Assembly (NCBI GenBank): GCA_964436015.1 | Contig: CAYTAR010000005.1 | Coordinates: 17,714 to 81,713, forward strand | Reading direction: 5' to 3' | DNA from: an uncultured Candidatus Saccharibacteria bacterium | GTDB taxonomy: Bacteria > Patescibacteriota > Minisyncoccia > Phycocordibacterales > GCA-2401445 | DNA: 64,000 nucleotides | Shown: positions 22,575 to 60,877 of the stretch, piece by piece | How positions within the stretch are numbered: position 1 is the first letter of the stretch | How the letters are laid out: the number at the start of each line of letters is the position of its first letter | Translations under genes and position numbers: made by a program | Notes under the pieces: generated by a model | Databases searched by the model: none | Seen by the model: the letters and a program-made list of their open reading frames with translations, nothing else | What the model was told of the DNA's origin: nothing

Positions 22575-22647
22575 TCCGCGGTAGCTCAGTTGGTAGAGCG
22601 TCTCGCTGTTAACGAGAGGGTCCTAGGTTCGAGCCCTAGCCGCGGAG
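22575..22647 (+). tRNA. tRNA-Asn (anticodon GTT)
   Basis: Hand-folded cloverleaf: acceptor TCCGCGG/CCGCGGA, D arm GCTC/GAGC, anticodon loop CTGTTAA, T arm CTAGG-TTCGAGC-CCTAG, discriminator G. Confidence 0.85.
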
Positions 22648-22907
22648 CCGTATAAAAAAATCACCTCTTATATTCTTGAGGTGATTTTTTTATACTTACT
22701 TACACGCGGCAGGGCTCGAACAGGAAAGGGGTCGGGAAAACAGTCGTTTTCCCGTGGAGTGAGAATGCATAGGTATGCATTCGCAAGACCGGAGGCAGAC
22801 GTGCCGAGGTGGGGTCGCAGGCTTTTTCAGCAGAAAAAGACCCGTGACAGGCAGTGAGTCTTCGAACGTTGGAAAACCGTAGGTTTCCAAGGAGTTCGAG
22901 CCCTAGC
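22645..22907 (+). repeat. 263-bp direct repeat copy 1 (att-like; starts at tRNA-Asn 3' end)
   Basis: About 99% identical to 29544..29806 (3 mismatches); begins GAGCC (tRNA 3' end) and ends GGAGTTCGAGCCCTAGC (tRNA T-arm-like core). Confidence 0.9.
22653..22694. terminator. bidirectional terminator just after tRNA-Asn (inside the repeat)
   Basis: AAAAAAATCACCTC-ttatattctt-GAGGTGATTTTTTT perfect 14-bp stem. Confidence 0.7.
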
Positions 22908-22965
22908 TTATATACGAGTACTTTGGATTTTAGAGTGTACTCACGAATAAAATCCTTAGTAACTC

Positions 22966-23034
22966 GTGACCGAGTCCTAGCCGCACACTACACCACAAAA
23001 TTCCAAAAATAATTGTACGTATCCCTGTTTTCTC
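22966..23034 (+). repeat. tRNA-Asn 3'-end-like fragment (F1) plus conserved AT-rich motif (M1)
   Basis: GTGACCGAGTCCTAGCCGCAC matches the tRNA 3' end at 15/16; followed by CAAAAATAATTGTACGTATCCCTGTTTTCTC; the unit recurs at 30020, 30727 and 31991. Confidence 0.7.
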
Positions 23035-23086
23035 TCAAACTCAGCATCTTGTGCTGCCACTGTATGTATATGTAAATCTATCTTTA

Positions 23087-24250
23087 TCATCGATTACCTT
23101 TTGCCCTGTTATGTGTCTTACACAACATCTGGCAATTTTTTGCGTCCGTTGCACCACCCTTACTCCACGCTGCCACATGGTCGGCATCCATGTCGCTTAG
23201 ACCCCAGATTTTCTCTTTGTTGGCATCATGCCCAATTGCACAAAGCGGACAGTTTGATTCGCCCTTTTTCTTTGCTGTGGCAGTTTGAGCTTCATACACT
23301 GAACGTTTGGTTGCATCATCAAACACACGTACATCAAGTAGTTTTGTATCAACTTCACCACCTAAGACGTACTCAAAGATTCCTTTGCGGTTCTTTACGT
23401 ATGCATCACCATAGAGCCGTTGCACTGCTGTGGCTACTTTCTTAGGATCATATTTTTTCTTGTGATAGGTTTCGTAAAGTCTATTCCATTCCAATCCTCT
23501 CATTTCACTCTCAACATCTGTGAATGTTTTGGATACCCAGTCAATGACTTTATCAAAGTGATTCTTTAGCTCCGTAATGTTCTTATCGTTACGATGCTTA
23601 CTCATGTAATTGTCTATGGCACCATCAGAAACCCAGTCTAAAGCTCGCTCCAAATATGCTTGGCGTTTGATGTCACCAGCAATATAGGCACTCCACTTCT
23701 GCACATTGGCGTTTTGACTGTTACTAAACTCTTCACGTGCCTTAGTAACAAAAGGACCCGAATAGACGGCGTTTAAAATCTCCTGCTCAGTTAGCGGCAC
23801 TCCAGCAATATTAATAGTCTTGAACCAATCCTTGATCTCTGGCTCGTCGCCCTCGCACACATACACCAACAATTTGGTGTTTAGTATCTGTTCACGCTGA
23901 CTGTCAGCCATACCGCTGTAGTACTGCTCATGGCCGTTCTTGTCTTTAACAGCAAACTTACCGGTAACAAATCGTCCAATACTGGTAATGCGCTGTTGGC
24001 CATCGAGGACCTCAAATTTGTCTTTTCCAACTTGGTTAAAATAAATCAAACCAATGGGGTATCCCTTCAAAATTGAGTCAATCACAGCAACATCCTTTTT
24101 GCCGTCAGCATAAATATAGTTACGTTGATATTCTGGTTGAATCGTTAGCTTGCCAGACAAACCAAACAAACCCTTTCCTTCCAACTCGTTATACACGAAG
24201 CCGTCGCAAACTTCTTCGATGGTGATGTCATTTTTTAGCGTTGTTTTCAT
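23087..24250 (-). CDS. DUF262 (ParB/GmrS-like) N-terminal domain + C-terminal HNH nuclease (GmrSD-like type IV restriction candidate)
   Basis: DGQQR motif of DUF262; C-terminal CPLC...[10 protein letters not shown]...[13 protein letters not shown] zinc-finger motif. Confidence 0.75.
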
Positions 24251-24252
24251 AA

Positions 24253-25440
24253 CTATTTTTTCTTGTGCTTGATTAAAACTCTCTGATAAACTTTTTCCAG
24301 TAAACCATTGACTTTCACGACTCCGCTAGCGTTAAGATCATAGATGCCTGTCTTGCCAAATTTATCTAGATACGCCTGTTTACATTCTGTAGATGTGTAA
24401 ACTTTGGTTTTTTGTTTATATAAATCCTCATTTTCACACATACCAACAATCTTAAATTGGTCAGGGTTATATTTATCTAGGAAACTAATTGGCACCCCCA
24501 TAACACCACCATAGTCACTAGGAATTGCTTTAGCGAACGGCACCTCAATGGCATCGTAATTTTCATATTTCAAATAGCTCGTTTCTTTCTTTTGTATCTG
24601 CTTATTAAATTTTTTATTTTCTGCCATGGTCATAAATTCAAGTGGTTGGTGACGACGACCATGATCAAGATTAGTAAACCAGCGAACACCCATCACACGC
24701 GCGTAGTGAACGCCATTTTTATCAGTCCGCCAATTGCCAATTTCCTTGAAAATATAATGCGGAACTACAAACTCTCTATCTCCACTACTTATACTTGGTC
24801 CAAGCCAGACCTTATTCTCTTTAATCATTGGAAAAACTTCTTTGTAAGTTATGGCATTCAAGTTACCAATGATTAGAAATTGTTTTTTGTATTCAAAAAG
24901 CTGAGTAATGTACTCACGGAATAAACTAAAGGGAGGATTAGTGACGACAATATCACTTTGCTTGAGAAGCTCCACGCATTCATCACTTCGAAAATCACCG
25001 TCTTCTTCGAGCGGTGCCCACTCGTTATTTTTATTAGCTTTAAGCTGCAAAGCAATGTCTTCAAGTGTGAATGAACCGTCGCCATCAACATCACCAACCT
25101 CGTTGATGATGAACTTGTTTGCGGTAATTTTTGGCCGCCCTTTAGCTGGTTCAAGAGTGACATCGTCACCAAACAGACCGATTTGAGTATTTGCAACCGG
25201 TGAAGGTTTGTAGCTAGTGGTAATGAGCCTCTTTAATCCTAGTCTATTAAAATTTAGAACGAAATATCGAAAGAAATTGCTTTCATATGGATCATCACAA
25301 TTGCTATAAATTACTTTACCCTTGAAAGTATCAGGGTCGTATTCAAGATAAGACTCGATTTCTTTTTGAATGTCCGAATACTGGGTATAAAACTCGTCAT
25401 TCTTTGTCCGCTTTGCGTTTGTAAGATTTTTGTTTGCCAT
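24253..25440 (-). CDS. gamma-class N6-adenine DNA methyltransferase
   Basis: N-terminal DEFYT (HsdM/IIG-like motif) and catalytic VVTNPPF (motif IV). Confidence 0.8.
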
Positions 25441-25445
25441 AACAT

Positions 25446-26435
25446 TTACAGAGTTTTTCTTCGTGTGAGGATCGGCTTAGCATCCAGTGAACCGATAAAG
25501 TAAAAACTATGGTTGAGATAGCTTGCCATTTCTTCTACTTCAGATAATGCATTGTATATAGCATTTCCCAATTCATACTCTTTTGTATTGCATTTGATTA
25601 TCTTGTCGCCAAAGATATCAGTGGCCTCATTCTTATCAATCACAAACCCATGATCCTTGTATTCATATACAAGACGCTCGGCAATATCTTTGGGCGTATT
25701 GGCAAGCTTGCTCGCTCGAGGACTGAGTAATCTTTCCGCATATTGCATTGCAGATTCCGCAACACGTTCGTAGTAACCCACCTGTACTGGTTCAACAGAA
25801 AGATTGAGATACTGCGCAAACATTGAGGCAGATGCGGGATATTTTTTTACAAGACTGGCAATGTGTTCAATTGAATTCTTTAGACCGAGAGCAGGTACCC
25901 TGCGTCCAGAGACTTCAGATTTCATCTGTGGATCAATTGGACCAAGCTCACTCATACTGCCCATATGTATCTCATCAGATGCACACGCTAGAAGAGTAGC
26001 TGCTGACTTAGCATAACGAGGCACAACGGTTACGAATTTCTTATTAGAAAACTCAGAACAAAGTTTCCCAATCAAATATGCTGATCCTGGCTCTCCACCA
26101 CCAGAGAGTAAGATGAGCAGAAGTGGTTTATCGTTGTTGAACTCTGTTATCGCTTCATAGATTTTGTCAGAGTCACCCTTAACCAAAATCGTATTATCGA
26201 ACAGGATTAGAGTATTGAAGTCTTCACCACAATCATGTTTATTAACTTCTTGTCTAAGAAATTTCTTTAAGAGAGCCGAGAACTCATCCTGTTTTGTTCG
26301 AGTCCCGTTTTTACCATAACCATCTACAAGAACGGTAAACAGGTCAACAAAAGATATTTCTTTCTTTTCTGAAGACTTTGGCTGACTGGCCTTAGTTGTC
26401 GTTGCTTTTTTAGGTGTTGGTTTCTTGTTTTTCAT
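25446..26435 (-). CDS. SDH/S49-family Clp-fold serine protease (SppA-like)
   Basis: LLSGGGEPGSAY and ACASDEIHMG blocks typical of the S49/SDH peptidase fold; Lys-rich N-terminus. Confidence 0.6.
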   Translation of the reverse strand: MKNKKPTPKKATTTKASQPKSSEKKEISFVDLFTVLVDGYGKNGTRTKQDEFSALLKKFLRQEVNKHDCGEDFNTLILFDNTILVKGDSDKIYEAITEFNNDKPLLLILLSGGGEPGSAYLIGKLCSEFSNKKFVTVVPRYAKSAATLLACASDEIHMGSMSELGPIDPQMKSEVSGRRVPALGLKNSIEHIASLVKKYPASASMFAQYLNLSVEPVQVGYYERVAESAMQYAERLLSPRASKLANTPKDIAERLVYEYKDHGFVIDKNEATDIFGDKIIKCNTKEYELGNAIYNALSEVEEMASYLNHSFYFIGSLDAKPILTRRKTL

Positions 26436-26437
26436 AC

Positions 26438-27133
26438 TTATTTCTCGTTATCGAGCATAACTTTCAACTGGAAGATTGTATCTGACTTCAGCTTTGCCCG
26501 TGCAGAGTCTTTCTGTGGATCGGACAACAACTCACCAAGACCATCCAAGATGTGCTTGTTATCCATCTTTTCCAGCATATCAATACATTTCTCCAGCGTT
26601 TCTTTGAAAGACATTCCTGAGCGCTGTTCCACTATTTCGCGATTTATTGACCAATTACTCTTAGCAAAGTAATTAACGTCAAACACGTCTCGGCTCGTCT
26701 TGCCGACACGTTCATACATCGCCATGAGTTTGTGGGCAAACATATCCTCCTGGACCATGACGAGCATTGAAATACCCAACAATGTCTTCATCTCGTATCG
26801 TGAGCCAAATTGTCTGCGATTGACCTCGACCTTTATGTTCTGAGCTTTCGGATCATAAGAGACGACATGGAGCAAGTTAAATCTCTTGATGCGAGAGTCG
26901 AGCACTTTGCCATACTCTTTGACAATAGTGCTGACCTTTTCAAACACCTCATCCTCCTTTGATTCGTCCAGCAAATCAAAGTCTAGGTCTACCGAATTAC
27001 GCGGCAAGTCATAGAACATAAGTGCCGCAGTACCACCTTTAAACCCGAGGCAGGGGGCAATGGAGGTATCAGAGTAGATATCTTTCAATATCTGCAACAG
27101 GATATTTTTATGTTTTGAATAGTCTAAGGTCAT
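26438..27133 (-). CDS. abiEii: AbiEii/AbiGii-family nucleotidyltransferase toxin (type IV TA)
   Basis: FKGGTAALMF...RNSVDLDFDL NTase motif; overlaps upstream abiEi stop by 4 nt. Confidence 0.8.
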   Translation of the reverse strand: MTLDYSKHKNILLQILKDIYSDTSIAPCLGFKGGTAALMFYDLPRNSVDLDFDLLDESKEDEVFEKVSTIVKEYGKVLDSRIKRFNLLHVVSYDPKAQNIKVEVNRRQFGSRYEMKTLLGISMLVMVQEDMFAHKLMAMYERVGKTSRDVFDVNYFAKSNWSINREIVEQRSGMSFKETLEKCIDMLEKMDNKHILDGLGELLSDPQKDSARAKLKSDTIFQLKVMLDNEK

Positions 27134-27732
27134 ACGGTTTTTTCTTTGTTATAGGCTTTGAAGTATTCTTTTACTTTCTTCTCCAATCGCTTGTTGTGAT
27201 AGATAGGCGCGATTTTAAAAACCTTATCCCAATCCAAACTAGCCAAGTTATCGAAATGATAGTCTTTGCTCACGTAGATACGATCCAAAAATGCACGTTC
27301 TTTTGTCGCGATCGAGTAGCCCGCTTTGCTTTCAATGCCAGCAGTATTACTCAAGACGTAATCTTTCATGCGGATAAAAGTGATCTTCTGGTCTCCAACT
27401 ATAATTTCGCGATTTACGTATGAGGCAACAAATATATTTCCGTAGTATTGGAAGCTAACCCCCTCACGAGTTAAAACAGTTTCAAAGCTTACATAGGAAG
27501 GCGTATAGATTCTGGTTGCTAACTCAAAGCGATCGTAGTTCTTGTCTTTTGCATACAAGCCACGACGTACTCGAATCAACTTTCCGGCCTTCACATATCG
27601 CTTTAATCGATCAGTGACAACAGAACTATCATCTTCATTCCACAACAAAGCAGCGTCTTTCGTAGAAAAGACTGTCTTGGAAGATCTTAACAAGACCTCT
27701 AAAAATTCTCCTTTTGTTGGTATTTTATCCAT
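27130..27732 (-). CDS. abiEi: AbiEi-family antitoxin/transcriptional regulator
   Basis: Position immediately upstream of and overlapping abiEii; N-terminal winged-helix-like region; internal ATG chosen. Confidence 0.65.
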   Translation of the reverse strand: MDKIPTKGEFLEVLLRSSKTVFSTKDAALLWNEDDSSVVTDRLKRYVKAGKLIRVRRGLYAKDKNYDRFELATRIYTPSYVSFETVLTREGVSFQYYGNIFVASYVNREIIVGDQKITFIRMKDYVLSNTAGIESKAGYSIATKERAFLDRIYVSKDYHFDNLASLDWDKVFKIAPIYHNKRLEKKVKEYFKAYNKEKTV

Positions 27733-27838
27733 TTTCAGTCTAGAAAGGGTATTTAAGTCCCTTTCCAGTAACAATATAGCATATTTTAGATAACTCAACA
27801 AATGGGGATAAGGGGAGAAATAAGCATATCTAGTACAT

Positions 27839-27902
27839 GTCTTATAATATTATAAGACATCATCATGTTGCTGTTTGTCTACTTATAATATTATAAGTAG
27901 AC
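27839..27902. promoter_or_regulatory. two perfect palindromic operators in the divergent abiEi / 27911 promoter region
   Basis: GTCTTATAATATTATAAGAC (20 bp, 27839-27858) and GTCTACTTATAATATTATAAGTAGAC (26 bp, 27877-27902) share the core CTTATAATATTATAAG. Confidence 0.6.
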
Positions 27903-27910
27903 TTTCAGCT

Positions 27911-28879
27911 ATGAAGAAATCTCCCCTAGAACAAGTCAAAGCAAAGCTTAATAAGTACTACTTGGCTGCTTTGACTGCGGAAGAGCTGCAGCTTTATTTT
28001 GACTCGCGACTTGAGAAGGTCTTGCGTGACAAGAAGATCGTAACCCTGCGAGAGCTTGGGTATCTGCTCTGTGAGACTGGTCCGGGTGATCGTCGCTTCG
28101 ATCCACGACACATTCCACTACTTATTCAGGACGGTCTTCTCTCTACTTCCCCGTATGGAAGTATCCCTGAAATTATTGAGCTTGGAGAGAAGAAAAAGAA
28201 AATTGATGAGTATCTCAGAGATAATCAGGATACAGAAGCTGCTAGAAAGCTGATTTTAAAAGTTCTCGCTACCTATGCCAGTGATCTGACAGTGGTCTCG
28301 AAAGATCTGTTTGTTGTGGACGGCATGTTCGGTAAGATTCCAGTTTCTTTTCTTGTTAAGAATGGACAGTGGATACTCCCTGATGAAGAGCTATTTTCCT
28401 TCTTGCAAGAAGCACAGCGTAAAAAACGGCTACCTGTAGTAGTAGCCAGAAAGATATCGGGTATCTTGTTTCCGATGTTCAAAGGTATTTCAGTTTTGGG
28501 ATTGAATCTTTACAAGACGTACCTACCAAAGAATGCCAAAGGACTGGTTGACGCGGCAGTCATTCCTGCCCAGGGTTTTATGAGAAAGTTGCGATACTCC
28601 GGTCAGTTTGAATACCTCACAAAGGACTATATAGAAGGGATTGAAGACGAATATTGGACCGGTGATCCACTCAAGAACTTTTTGGAAGTAATCATGCCCA
28701 GGCATGCAGAAGACTACTATCAGCGTTTTGTTGATCAGAAGATCACTACCGCAGATAACTTCGCTGATACCGTGTCGCAGTTCCGAAAAAACAAAGCCAC
28801 CAAAGGTCTTCTGAATACTTATGAAGCGCAGGAGAATTTGATTCAAGAACTCAGTAAAACAACTAAGAAAGGCTCATGA
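27911..28879 (+). CDS. hypothetical protein (322 aa), divergent from abiEi
   Basis: ATG at 27911 (the ORF track TTG start at 27875 lies inside the operator palindrome); no domain recognised. Confidence 0.5.
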   Translation: MKKSPLEQVKAKLNKYYLAALTAEELQLYFDSRLEKVLRDKKIVTLRELGYLLCETGPGDRRFDPRHIPLLIQDGLLSTSPYGSIPEIIELGEKKKKIDEYLRDNQDTEAARKLILKVLATYASDLTVVSKDLFVVDGMFGKIPVSFLVKNGQWILPDEELFSFLQEAQRKKRLPVVVARKISGILFPMFKGISVLGLNLYKTYLPKNAKGLVDAAVIPAQGFMRKLRYSGQFEYLTKDYIEGIEDEYWTGDPLKNFLEVIMPRHAEDYYQRFVDQKITTADNFADTVSQFRKNKATKGLLNTYEAQENLIQELSKTTKKGS

Positions 28880-29388
28880 AAACGAACGGATGGCACAAAA
28901 GAGTACTGCTGAAACATGCTAAAGAAATAACGACTAATGGGATGACCTATGCAGTCATTGCGCTTGTACTCTTACTCTGGCACTTTGCTCTTGATATGAA
29001 ATTTCAGTGGCAACAGATAGCACCTTTGTCAGAACCAAGTATCTTTGTCCGTGCATTTTACAGCGCATTCACGTTTGGAACATTAGGCCTATTACTGTAT
29101 GTACTCCGCTTTTACAAAGTCTTGCACGACATCATGGTTAAAGCTTTCGGTATGTGGGAACTCTATAACCTGATCAAAGCGGTGATCTGGCTGGGCTTAA
29201 TGTATGTCTCTTATGCCTATCTCGTACCATGGCTATTTAAGTTTTTGAATACTGGAGCGTCTGTTCTTTTCAACATTGCCAACCTGGTGCTATATATCGC
29301 ACCTCCTATAGGTATTGCTTTGATCGTAAGCATTATTTATCTGATCCTCAAAAATAAATTCGCATTGAGACATCGTGCCCCGAAATAA
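28876..29388 (+). CDS. 4-TM membrane protein, translationally coupled to the upstream hypothetical
   Basis: ATGA overlap; four hydrophobic helices; no domain recognised. Confidence 0.5.
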   Translation: MKTNGWHKRVLLKHAKEITTNGMTYAVIALVLLLWHFALDMKFQWQQIAPLSEPSIFVRAFYSAFTFGTLGLLLYVLRFYKVLHDIMVKAFGMWELYNLIKAVIWLGLMYVSYAYLVPWLFKFLNTGASVLFNIANLVLYIAPPIGIALIVSIIYLILKNKFALRHRAPK

Positions 29389-29543
29389 CACACGGACTCA
29401 TTGTAGTTGCTTAGTATTCAAACACCTCGTGCCTATTGCATGTACTTCGGGAGGATCGGCGTGATACCGGCACGTTCCAATGCTTCGCTGGAACGTCGCC
29501 AGAAGTCCGCTTCAATAGCGGTTCTAATGCGTCGCATTCCGTC

Positions 29544-29806
29544 GAGCCGTATAAAAAAATCACCTCTTATATTCTTGAGGTGATTTTTTTATACTTACTT
29601 ACACGCGGCAGGGCTCGAACAGGAAAGGGGTCGGGAAAACAGTCGTTTTCCCGTGGAGTGAGAATGCATAGGTATGCATTCGCAAGACCGGAGGCAGACG
29701 TGCCGAGGTGGGGTCGCAGGCTTTTTCAGCAGAAAAAGACCTGTGATAGGCAGTGAGTCTTCGAGCGTTGGAAAACCGTAGGTTTCCAAGGAGTTCGAGC
29801 CCTAGC
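29544..29806 (+). repeat. 263-bp direct repeat copy 2
   Basis: Identical to 22645..22907 apart from 3 mismatches; includes the same terminator hairpin (29552-29593). Confidence 0.9.
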
Positions 29807-30019
29807 ATTTATGTGTATTCGAAAGACGGAGCGTACGAAGTCGCCTTCTTAGGCGTGCGCGAGTCGGGTGAGAAGCGAACACTTGGAGCTTTGCAAGACC
29901 TTTTGAGCTGTTTTGTGAGTGAAGCGAAATAAAAGAGTCAAAAGGTGTACAGAATCTGTAAGATTCGCGAACACTTAGTCCGCACAGTGTGCAAAGCACA
30001 TGAGCAGACTTAGTGATTT

Positions 30020-30088
30020 GTGACCGAGTCCTAGCCGCACGCTATACCACATAACTTCAAAAATAATTGTACTTATCCCTGTTTTCTC
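30020..30088 (+). repeat. tRNA-Asn 3'-end-like fragment (F2) + motif M2
   Basis: GTGACCGAGTCCTAGCCGCAC then CAAAAATAATTGTACTTATCCCTGTTTTCTC. Confidence 0.7.
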
Positions 30089-30514: not shown

Positions 30515-30726
30515 AAACATCAACAAAATCACGAACCCGCACAAGCAAAAGCTACGGCGGGTTTTTCTTTTATACGCCTCCGAACTTACCCAACCTTTCA
30601 ATACTCAATTTAACCAAAGGATATATCCTAAACAGTTCGGTGAATATGTAATTTGGGAAGCATAAAACACAAAGTCCTCGTGAGAAGCAGGGGATTTTTT
30701 GTGTCCTTTCGGCTAGGACTAAAAGA

Positions 30727-30788
30727 CGAAGCCCTAGTCGCACACTACACCACAAAATTTCAAAAATAATTGTACTTATCCTTATTCT
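30727..30788 (+). repeat. tRNA-Asn 3'-end-like fragment (F3) + degenerate motif M3
   Basis: GAAGCCCTAGTCGCAC then CACCACAAAATTTCAAAAATAATTGTACTTATCC. Confidence 0.6.
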
Positions 30789-30895
30789 TCTATGATTTGA
30801 CAAATACTACAATTAATGCTCTACTTAGACTTAGAAGCAATGACCGGATAAGTGTCCGAAAACAGGCTTATACTTGAACCTACAATAAAAGGACT

Positions 30896-31990: not shown

Positions 31991-32054
31991 GAAAAATAAT
32001 TGTACTTACCCCTGTTTTCTTCTTATCCCTGTTTTCTTATCCCTGTTTTCTCTC
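31991..32054 (+). repeat. motif M4 with a triplicated TATCCCTGTTTTCT unit
   Basis: GAAAAATAATTGTACTTACCCCTGTTTTCTTCTTATCCCTGTTTTCTTATCCCTGTTTTCTCTC. Confidence 0.7.
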
Positions 32055-60609: not shown

Positions 60610-60877
60610 ATAAAGATATAAAATATCGATTAAAAGATAAAAAAGGAAATATAAATCTGTAGCGATATATCGCTACAGATTGCTCTCTAAAAATAAACAG
60701 CACCTATTGATGCTGTTTATTTTTACGCTTTGTGTCACAAGTTACTAAGTCTGCTCCTGTGCTCCGCACGGTGCGCGGACTAAGTACTCGCGACACCGTC
60801 TCGCCTGTCGCAAAGCGACACGGCTCCGACTTCACACTTCGCTCGCACGCAAAGCAGTTTGCGTGCTTTACGCTCGT

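Follow-up and report, generated by a model that had tools for sequence, protein, structure and literature searches.

Do two overlapping genes in a defence island of an uncultured Candidatus Saccharibacteria bacterium form one immunity module, or does each belong to a wider theme of its own? We investigated this question in a 64,000-nucleotide (nt) stretch of contig CAYTAR010000005.1 (GenBank assembly GCA_964436015.1, positions 17,714–81,713), hereafter the window, in which gene A encodes a 322-amino-acid (aa) soluble protein and gene B encodes a membrane protein of 170 aa. The original prediction, made from the sequence alone, had proposed the pair as a single defence module. The observation was confirmed and the module interpretation was partly supported. 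Gene A is a conserved companion of AbiE loci in Patescibacteria, where it forms a divergently transcribed third gene. Gene B is a "tail gene" that comes last on the same strand after the genes of at least 20 unrelated proteins, in many cases downstream of type I or DpnII restriction-modification (R-M) operons. We consider it rather probable that two independent recurrent themes, an AbiE-linked regulator or sensor (A) and a shared membrane tail gene (B), were juxtaposed in one mobile defence cassette. We have high confidence in the genomic facts, which comprise the structures of the genes, the distributions of the families, their linkage, the covariation of the palindromes and the selection on the genes.

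Separate distributions of genes A and B

The two predicted open reading frames (ORFs), which overlap through an ATGA stop/start and encode the 322-aa protein and a 170-aa protein with approximately four transmembrane (TM) segments, were confirmed by ORF analysis, hydropathy, the existence of homologue families and ratios of nonsynonymous to synonymous substitution rates (dN/dS) of ∼0.1. Gene A was directly followed by gene B only in the window and in loci L010 and L026, which represent one lineage with ∼89–91% identity. In 23 loci fetched via A homologues, neither B nor a remnant of B was found using tblastn. Both genes were present in one island of L059, 3.5 kb apart and on opposite strands. 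The proposal that A and B constitute one conserved module was not upheld by these distributions, in which A occurs without B in 23 loci and B occurs with at least 20 other partners. The layout of a soluble protein with a small membrane protein, on which the proposal had been based, fits the general deployment of B, but the adjacency of A and B is restricted to one lineage. Co-occurrence with defence genes was observed for A with AbiE and for B behind defence genes elsewhere, and for the adjacent pair in that one lineage only.

All named members of both families were from metagenome-assembled genomes of Patescibacteria (Paceibacterota, Niyogibacteria, and Curtissbacteria). No match was obtained by tblastn searches of A against PLSDB plasmids and GenBank phages and of B against PLSDB plasmids, or by scans of IMG/VR with the alignments of A and B. 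A phage or plasmid origin is therefore unsupported. The literature on EMARD/DUF4209, defence systems in candidate phyla radiation (CPR) bacteria, and three-gene AbiE contained nothing that describes the A or B family, and no report of a third AbiE gene was found in the literature on three-gene AbiE.

Gene B and its upstream partners

A Kyte-Doolittle plot of B gave strongly hydrophobic stretches at residues 23–43, 99–117, and 139–163 and a weaker one at residues 56–77. The AlphaFold model was moderate (predicted local distance difference test score, pLDDT, 78), with helices at residues 6–40, 56–76, 79–90, and 94–166. The N-terminus, the central loop, and the C-terminus are rich in K and R, which fits a predicted 4-TM topology with both termini inside. 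No match to B was found in PADLOC-DB v2 (E up to 0.1), PHROGs, or NCBIfam, and the only Pfam match, SK_channel at an E of 0.01, was under the cut-off. Holin and small membrane toxin families gave no match via PHROG, Pfam, NCBIfam, or PADLOC, and no structure in the PDB was significantly similar using Foldseek (E of at least 3.6).

The B family comprised 151 homologues (186 clusters by profile), all from Patescibacteria and 55–91% identical, with a mean column identity of 70% and 45 invariant columns in the alignment. The dN/dS values were 0.03–0.13 at dS values of 0.3–0.9 between close pairs, which indicates that the conservation results from purifying selection and not from recent spread. Eight loci with B were detected in the species genomes of GTDB using a single-sequence pattern scan of low sensitivity, and ∼61% identity was found in a protein whose name assigns it to Candidatus Curtissbacteria.

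We compared the neighbourhoods of B in 66 loci, which contain 45 distinct upstream junctions. B was on the same strand as the preceding gene in all 66 loci. Overlaps of 4 or 11 nt were found at 17 of the 45 junctions, gaps of 0–10 nt at 14, gaps of 11–40 nt at 4, and gaps of more than 40 nt at 6; no upstream ORF was resolved at the remaining 4, two of which are near contig ends. Thus, 31 of the 45 junctions overlap or fall within 10 nt. The upstream proteins, the shortest of 81 aa and the longest of 1954 aa, formed 26 unrelated clusters. The identifiable partners, whose architectures are classic ones for defence genes, were NACHT and nSTAND3 NTPases, TPR and PIN-TPR-GreABC proteins, AAA_15/AAA_21 proteins with or without an OLD-type TOPRIM domain, UvrD helicase, DUF4209, DUF2254, and HsdS, and many others were without a known domain, including families of 195, 360, 425, 451, 522, 570, 781, and 1185 aa. 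Conservation started exactly at the ATG of B; neither a conserved ribosome-binding site or promoter upstream of B nor a C-terminal docking motif common to the partners was found.

The variable partners frequently occupy a defined slot. The arrangement hsdM-hsdS-hsdR-ygjP-[1–3 variable genes]-B was present in at least 13 loci (for example, L001, L011, L012, L025, L041, and L049), and a DpnII system followed by a variable gene and B was present in L030 and L042. Clades of B with at least 90% identity shared the same downstream gene and had unlike partners. For example, L011 and L012 have in common hsdR-ygjP, B (97% identity), and a downstream IS256-like transposase read from the sequence, and the cargo between them differs. 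Conversely, identical partner families recurred with divergent B clades. These results indicate that the cargo is exchanged faster than B diverges, probably through recombination in which B and the R-M genes serve as the arms.

Several further features were observed around the slot. A three-gene set (DUF2254, 826 aa; a 367-aa protein; and a 451- or 195-aa protein) forms the cargo in L004, L011, and L037 and looks like an undescribed system. A family of acidic proteins of ∼100 aa (METESKQQILERRKEIEQEL…), which has no Pfam match, starts 3–5 nt after B in L025 (6583–6882), L038, L039, L040, and L041 and precedes B in L064. L001 and L002 (11.6–15.3 kb), which sample the same 0.95-Mb genome twice, differ by a serine-recombinase element ∼1 kb downstream of B; its genes encode a 193-aa protein, a 66-aa protein, and DUF5659. 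In L082, a relative of this element (9.1–13.2 kb) comes after an A homologue.

B might instead be a passenger, that is, a non-defence membrane protein that borders a recombination hot spot for defence cargo, with junctions made tight by the compaction of Patescibacteria genomes. Such a role would agree with the constancy of B and its downstream genes while the upstream cargo is swapped, with the very strong purifying selection, with the lack of a common C-terminal motif in the partners, and with the positions of B next to rpsJ/tuf in L060 and next to TspO in L020, L043, and L061. It accounts poorly for the strand of B, which is always that of the upstream gene, and for conservation from the ATG onward, which leaves no conserved promoter region. 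The recurrence of partner families with different B clades, the patchy distribution (the eight loci of the low-sensitivity GTDB scan and the 186 profile clusters), and the Curtissbacteria relative, which suggests horizontal transfer, also argue against a passenger, as does the location of B in the window within a mobile cassette whose flanks are unlike those in L010 on both sides. We regard the passenger explanation as doubtful. From these sequence comparisons we modestly prefer B as a functional shared membrane component, on the basis of its near-universal strand and coupling, the lack of a detected promoter of its own, its patchy spread from Paceibacterota to Curtissbacteria, and its place inside the cassette.

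Linkage of gene A to AbiE

A homologues, including relatives detected by profile only, were divergent from AbiEi and AbiEii genes in nine lineages: the window with L010 and L026; L007 and L008; L072–L075; L076; L078–L081; L082–L084; L059; and the distant L086 and L089. The spacing between A and AbiEi was ∼175–240 bp (∼175–180 bp in the closer lineages), and A always adjoined AbiEi among the closer homologues. The linked AbiEi proteins are 195–223 aa and the AbiEii proteins 231–259 aa in length. The same layout was kept by the distant homologues of 365 aa (L086) and 399 aa (L089). The A-linked AbiEi proteins belonged to four PADLOC subfamilies (02255, 02241, 02267, and 02228), and the AbiEii proteins that were scanned belonged to three (02324, 02313, and 02304). 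The presence of four AbiEi subfamilies indicates that the linkage was not inherited from one ancestral locus. The genes past AbiEii varied by locus and encoded an EcoRI-type methyltransferase with GmrSD-HNH and a KAP NTPase; a DEAD helicase; an N6_N4 methyltransferase with SLFN; or a type I/IIG-like R-M system. In L089, the 399-aa homologue, divergent from AbiEi_4 and AbiEii, also adjoins NERD, integrase, and relaxase fragments.

Palindromes upstream of gene A

Ahead of A there is always a palindrome, or a pair of them, built around a TATAATATTATA-like core. In the window there are two, termed IR1 and IR2 (Table 1), which have CTTATAATATTATAAG in common, and the TTATAATATTATAA-type core overlaps −10-like hexamers. 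The 12-nt core occurred twice in the window and nowhere else in it; with one mismatch allowed, there were 3 matches against 0.26 expected. In the 91 fetched loci, the core was located solely upstream of A homologues, including those of L087 and L090, which lack AbiE; one extra copy was located upstream of the neighbouring SLFN gene of L087. For the closer homologues, IR1 typically ends ∼50 nt and IR2 ∼8 nt ahead of the start codon, and in the window the extended stem of the predicted IR2 fold pairs with the AUG of A.

The palindrome arms outside the core varied from one locus to another and, inside a single locus, from IR1 to IR2, and their complementarity was kept. Both sides had changed in 13 of 21 pairs, and 88% of the cells were paired; none of 500 shuffles attained these values, and pairing fell to 37–53% in slid controls. 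A 58-nt perfect palindrome with GC-rich 22-nt arms around TTAATAATATTATAA was observed in L089 (5925–5985), ∼12 nt before the 399-aa homologue. The dyad symmetry past the core would favour a hairpin or cruciform, or else a −10 element that is symmetric, acts in both directions, and is bound by a dimer.

The abiE genes have a −10-like region of their own and a proximal hairpin (Table 1), the arms of which differ yet stay complementary by eye in L072, L076, and L059. This hairpin may be the AbiEi operator or a 5′-untranslated region (5′-UTR) structure. Because the palindromes track A even without AbiE and abiE has its own hairpin, the intergenic region contains two separate putative control regions and not the one shared operator that had been predicted.

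Gene A family and predicted fold

Sequence searches identified 102 full-length homologues of A with similar lengths and 34–89% identity. A profile search of 1.84 billion representatives gave 122 matches, including relatives of 330–440 aa that aligned over the central region. The dN/dS value of A was ∼0.1. The ORF has an alternative, longer TTG start at 27875, which is unlikely since the N-termini of the homologues align to the ATG and the extension would cross a conserved palindrome. A has no TM segment. The prediction that neither protein has a recognizable domain was borne out by Pfam, NCBIfam, PHROGs, and PADLOC, and A also had no sequence match in the PDB. For A, no match was found in Pfam, PHROGs, or PADLOC-DB v2, which was searched at an E up to 0.1 for known and candidate defence systems. 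NCBIfam gave NirJ1 alone (E of 0.034; 12.8 bits against a 650-bit cut-off), and sequence and profile searches against the PDB gave only noise, such as GGDEF at an E of 0.5. Nine of ten distant A homologues had no Pfam match, and the tenth, P0259, had two sub-threshold matches at an E of ∼0.02. No Pfam match to a helix-turn-helix (HTH) or WYL domain was obtained at an E up to 0.1. We also considered A as a second AbiEi-like antitoxin; this candidate was dropped, as hhalign against AbiEi gave a probability score of 0.1 and no relationship.

Structure prediction gave a confident model for A (pLDDT, 92.5; predicted template modelling score, 0.89). In it, a helical domain with an invariant ETGPG loop at the N-terminus is followed by an α-β-β-β-α-β domain in the centre and a helical domain at the C-terminus. 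Foldseek searches against the PDB and BFVD returned partial restriction-endonuclease-like matches, all below significance (best E of 3e-3; template modelling score, ∼0.25). The best matches were models of phage "restriction endonucleases" (probability, 0.98–0.99; E of 3e-3 to 3e-2), and further sub-threshold matches were EndoMS, MspJI, an archaeal splicing endonuclease, and the Cap4 SAVED/CARF receptor. In the alignment, the catalytic D...(D/E)xK signature of PD-(D/E)xK enzymes was not conserved: only some family members have D or E at position 137, where T, K, Q, A, S, and G also occur, and an acidic residue is absent two positions ahead of K150. Among the invariant positions, aromatic or basic residues predominate (N151, W154, K181, and K202, together with the KKISGILFPVFKG motif). 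We infer that A may be a catalytically inactive restriction-endonuclease-like fold that is reused for nucleic-acid binding.

A could also be imagined as an independent effector or toxin, such as a divergent nuclease, that is repressed by AbiEi through the palindromes acting as AbiEi operators. AbiEi proteins bind paired inverted repeats in their own promoters (PMC7319586), and the predicted restriction-endonuclease-like fold and the invariable adjacency of AbiEi in the closer homologues point in the same direction. An effector role is nevertheless unlikely: the palindromes persist upstream of the A homologues in L087 and L090, they lie at the start of A and at least 100 nt from abiEi with its separate hairpin and −10-like region, and a conserved D...(D/E)xK motif is lacking. 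Moreover, the same core accompanies four AbiEi subfamilies, whereas neither AbiEi nor Rv2827c binds the repeats of the other (PMC7319586).

Cassette and neighbouring genes

The coordinates of the features are summarized in Table 1. A and B lie opposite AbiEi and AbiEii in a cassette of 6.5 kb at tRNA-Asn with direct repeats at both ends (274 nt at 97% identity, plus 80 nt), the left copy of which abuts the tRNA gene. The predicted position opposite AbiE within repeat-bounded cargo was thus verified, and the neighbouring ORFs 27130–27801 and 26438–27133 matched the PADLOC and Pfam profiles of AbiEi and AbiEii. The likely start of abiEi is Met24 of the former ORF, which gives a protein of ∼200 aa as in the homologues. 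The abiEi and abiEii genes overlap, and further genes come after abiEii.

Table 1. Positions of the cassette features in the window.
Feature	Position	Strand	Remarks
Left direct repeat copy	22640..23034	+	Begins within the 3′ end of tRNA-Asn (22575–22649)
R-M pair	23087..25440	−	EcoRI-like adenine methyltransferase (24253–25440) and GmrSD_N+HNH endonuclease (23087–24250)
SDH/ClpP-like serine protease	25446..26435	−	Pfam SDH_protease, 2.1e-12
abiEii, nucleotidyltransferase toxin, 231 aa	26438..27133	−	PADLOC PDLC02324, 2.5e-77; Pfam AbiEii, 1.1e-15
abiEi, antitoxin/repressor	27130..27732	−	PADLOC PDLC02255, 8.6e-57, aligned from residue 32; Pfam AbiEi_4
abiE-proximal hairpin	27742..27764	−	GAAAGGG-N9-CCCTTTC, loop with TTAA; 10–32 nt upstream of the likely abiEi start
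IR1, 24-nt perfect palindrome	27837..27860		ATGTCTTATAATATTATAAGACAT, core TATAATATTATA; ends 50 nt before the ATG of A; hairpin −9.5 kcal/mol, z −6.1
IR2, 26-nt perfect palindrome	27877..27902		GTCTACTTATAATATTATAAGTAGAC; ends 8 nt before the ATG of A; fold −23.4 kcal/mol, z −6.5
Gene A, soluble protein, 322 aa	27911..28879	+	ORF from ATG 27911 to stop
Gene B, membrane protein, 170 aa, ∼4 TM	28876..29388	+	ATG overlaps the TGA of A as ATGA
Right direct repeat copy	29539..30088	+	Contains a terminator-like hairpin (29549–29594)

The closest relative of the window locus was L010, from Patescibacteria UBA3530. The DNA homology between the two extended from 23079 to 29555, with the exception of the protease gene, and the flanks of the cassette in the window were unlike those of L010 on both sides. 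Since this homology exactly fills the space between the repeats, the cassette is a discrete mobile unit, with B as the final gene. The protease gene is located between AbiEii and the methyltransferase in the window only; L007, L010, L026, and L072, which otherwise have the same operon, are without it.

The bounding repeat is ∼450 nt, and shorter copies of its 3′ part (…AAAAATAATTGTACTTATCCCTGTTTTCT) were found at 30712–30791, 31992–32051, and 60734–60793 (minus strand). These shorter copies recur ahead of the small ORFs that lie at 30.2, 30.9, and 32.1 kb, and also near tRNA-Glu. The set of copies looks like an array of cassettes serially inserted at a single site. Rfam gave two tRNAs only, and conservation of an RNA downstream of B was limited to the close relative. 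In several unrelated Paceibacteria contigs (L004, L007, and L072), spoVG adjoins islands that carry A or B, and this recurrent neighbourhood suggests a chromosomal hot spot there.

Discussion

The linkage to AbiE, the palindromes of its own, and the predicted degenerate fold make a regulator or sensor the most economical reading of A. In the mechanism that we favour, A would bind its own palindromes as a DNA operator or cruciform or as a 5′-UTR hairpin and would serve as an autoregulated regulator or sensor of the adjacent AbiE/R-M operon and not as a nuclease. B would share a transcript with an upstream defence gene, behind which it comes last and to which it is usually coupled in translation; translation of that gene would license the synthesis of B. 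It would supply many cytosolic defence modules with the same generic membrane component, which could be an effector or could serve as a sensor or anchor at the envelope, and the upstream cargo would be replaced by recombination while B remains. We place low to moderate confidence in these mechanisms, which postulate DNA or RNA binding by A and a defence role of B. A more far-reaching proposal combines two claims. First, B, as one extremely conserved 4-TM protein, would form the invariable part of a modular, two-part immunity specific to Patescibacteria; it would be the common membrane effector or envelope sensor for more than 20 unrelated, swappable cytosolic defence proteins, whose translation would license it. 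Second, A, through a degenerate restriction-endonuclease fold, would be the member of a three-gene AbiE that reads twin palindromic hairpins and so controls the toxin-antitoxin and R-M operon. This combination is possible, and we put it forward tentatively.

Several observations weigh against the favoured explanation. In regard to A, the two distant homologues of L087 and L090 are without AbiE and come after genes containing HATPase_c_4, namely SLFN_AlbA_2 and DUF4062, respectively. Every fold match of A is sub-significant, and a recognizable HTH is absent. Within one locus, IR1 and IR2 have unlike arms, which speaks against simple recognition of an operator sequence past the core, and the palindromes could instead be symmetric promoters or could be kept perfect by templated repair. 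With respect to B, ∼6 of the 45 junctions have gaps of more than 40 nt, and housekeeping genes occur next to B (rpsJ/tuf in L060 and TspO in L061). Some of its partners are of self-sufficient kinds (an OLD-type ATPase with a UvrD helicase, STAND NTPases, and PIN proteins) that should need no membrane protein. For neither A nor B is there an annotated homologue.

Defence-related pairs of one soluble protein (∼300 aa) and one small 4-TM protein are also formed by RexAB of phage lambda and by Kiwa (the 4-TM KwaA with KwaB). A and B resemble these systems in outline only: neither has a PADLOC family, A has no Pfam family, the gene order is opposite to that of Kiwa, and the pair is not conserved, with B having many partners. 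A self-contained two-gene abortive-infection module in which the soluble sensor A activates the membrane effector B is decidedly improbable, since the ATGA overlap, the retention of the pair in L010 and L026 (89–91% identity; dN/dS ∼0.1), the general coupling of B to soluble defence proteins, and the RexAB- and Kiwa-like layout are set against the lack of B from 23 loci with A, which span more than 8 lineages, the separation of the two genes in L059, the 20 or more other partners of B, the constant association of A with AbiE and its own palindromes, and the lack of a PADLOC family for either gene.

The favoured pair of separate themes also differs from other known systems. Accessory defence genes are nested in type I R-M operons, as is PrrC in the EcoprrI locus, which the hsdM-hsdS-hsdR-ygjP-[variable gene(s)]-B slot resembles; the slot differs in being closed by a constant membrane gene and in the far greater diversity of its cargo. 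The combination of a constant membrane part with variable cytosolic proteins recalls Zorya, in which ZorAB takes the place of B, as a functional analogy only; B is one protein of 170 aa and has no MotAB-like features, and its partners are unrelated whole systems and not a few effector types. BrxR/CapW proteins (wHTH-WYL) are reported to be ∼300 aa in length, to stand at the head of varied defence operons, and to bind inverted repeats upstream (PMC9122601). A resembles them in its position and upstream inverted repeats and differs in its predicted restriction-endonuclease-like core; it has no Pfam match to HTH or WYL, and BrxR/CapW was absent from the top 50 PDB fold matches of A. The AbiE systems described are bicistronic (PMC3985639), and their control involves inverted repeats near the promoter (PMC7319586, PMC3985639). 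The genes opposite A are bona fide AbiEi and AbiEii, and inverted repeats are present here too, but they track A rather than AbiEi. The difference is a third, divergent gene for a protein of 300–400 aa, which has twin palindromes of its own and occurs alongside four AbiEi subfamilies. A is not similar to AbiEi or AbiEii, and neither A nor B matched their profiles in Pfam or PADLOC.

What is of interest in the locus is accordingly no longer a novel two-gene module but a pair of separate regularities, both apparently undescribed: a third AbiE gene with twin co-varying palindromes and a promiscuous, highly constrained membrane tail gene in defence operons of Patescibacteria. The phage resistance of Patescibacteria is poorly understood. 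These bacteria account for a large part of bacterial diversity, and CRISPR is rarely found in them (PMC6509639). If B does act as a shared membrane hub, many systems would be served by one effector or sensor, which is rare, and B would provide a simple genomic marker by which whatever precedes it is a defence candidate, giving access to new defence genes from uncultivated bacteria. If A is a functional third AbiE component, a widespread toxin-antitoxin defence described as bicistronic would gain a new level of regulation or sensing, and A would offer, with its palindromes, a compact protein-palindrome pair that is testable in E. coli. Even if both genes are passengers, the locus documents a cassette-swapping slot (R-M ... 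[cargo] ... B) and an array of repeat-bounded cassettes at a tRNA gene.

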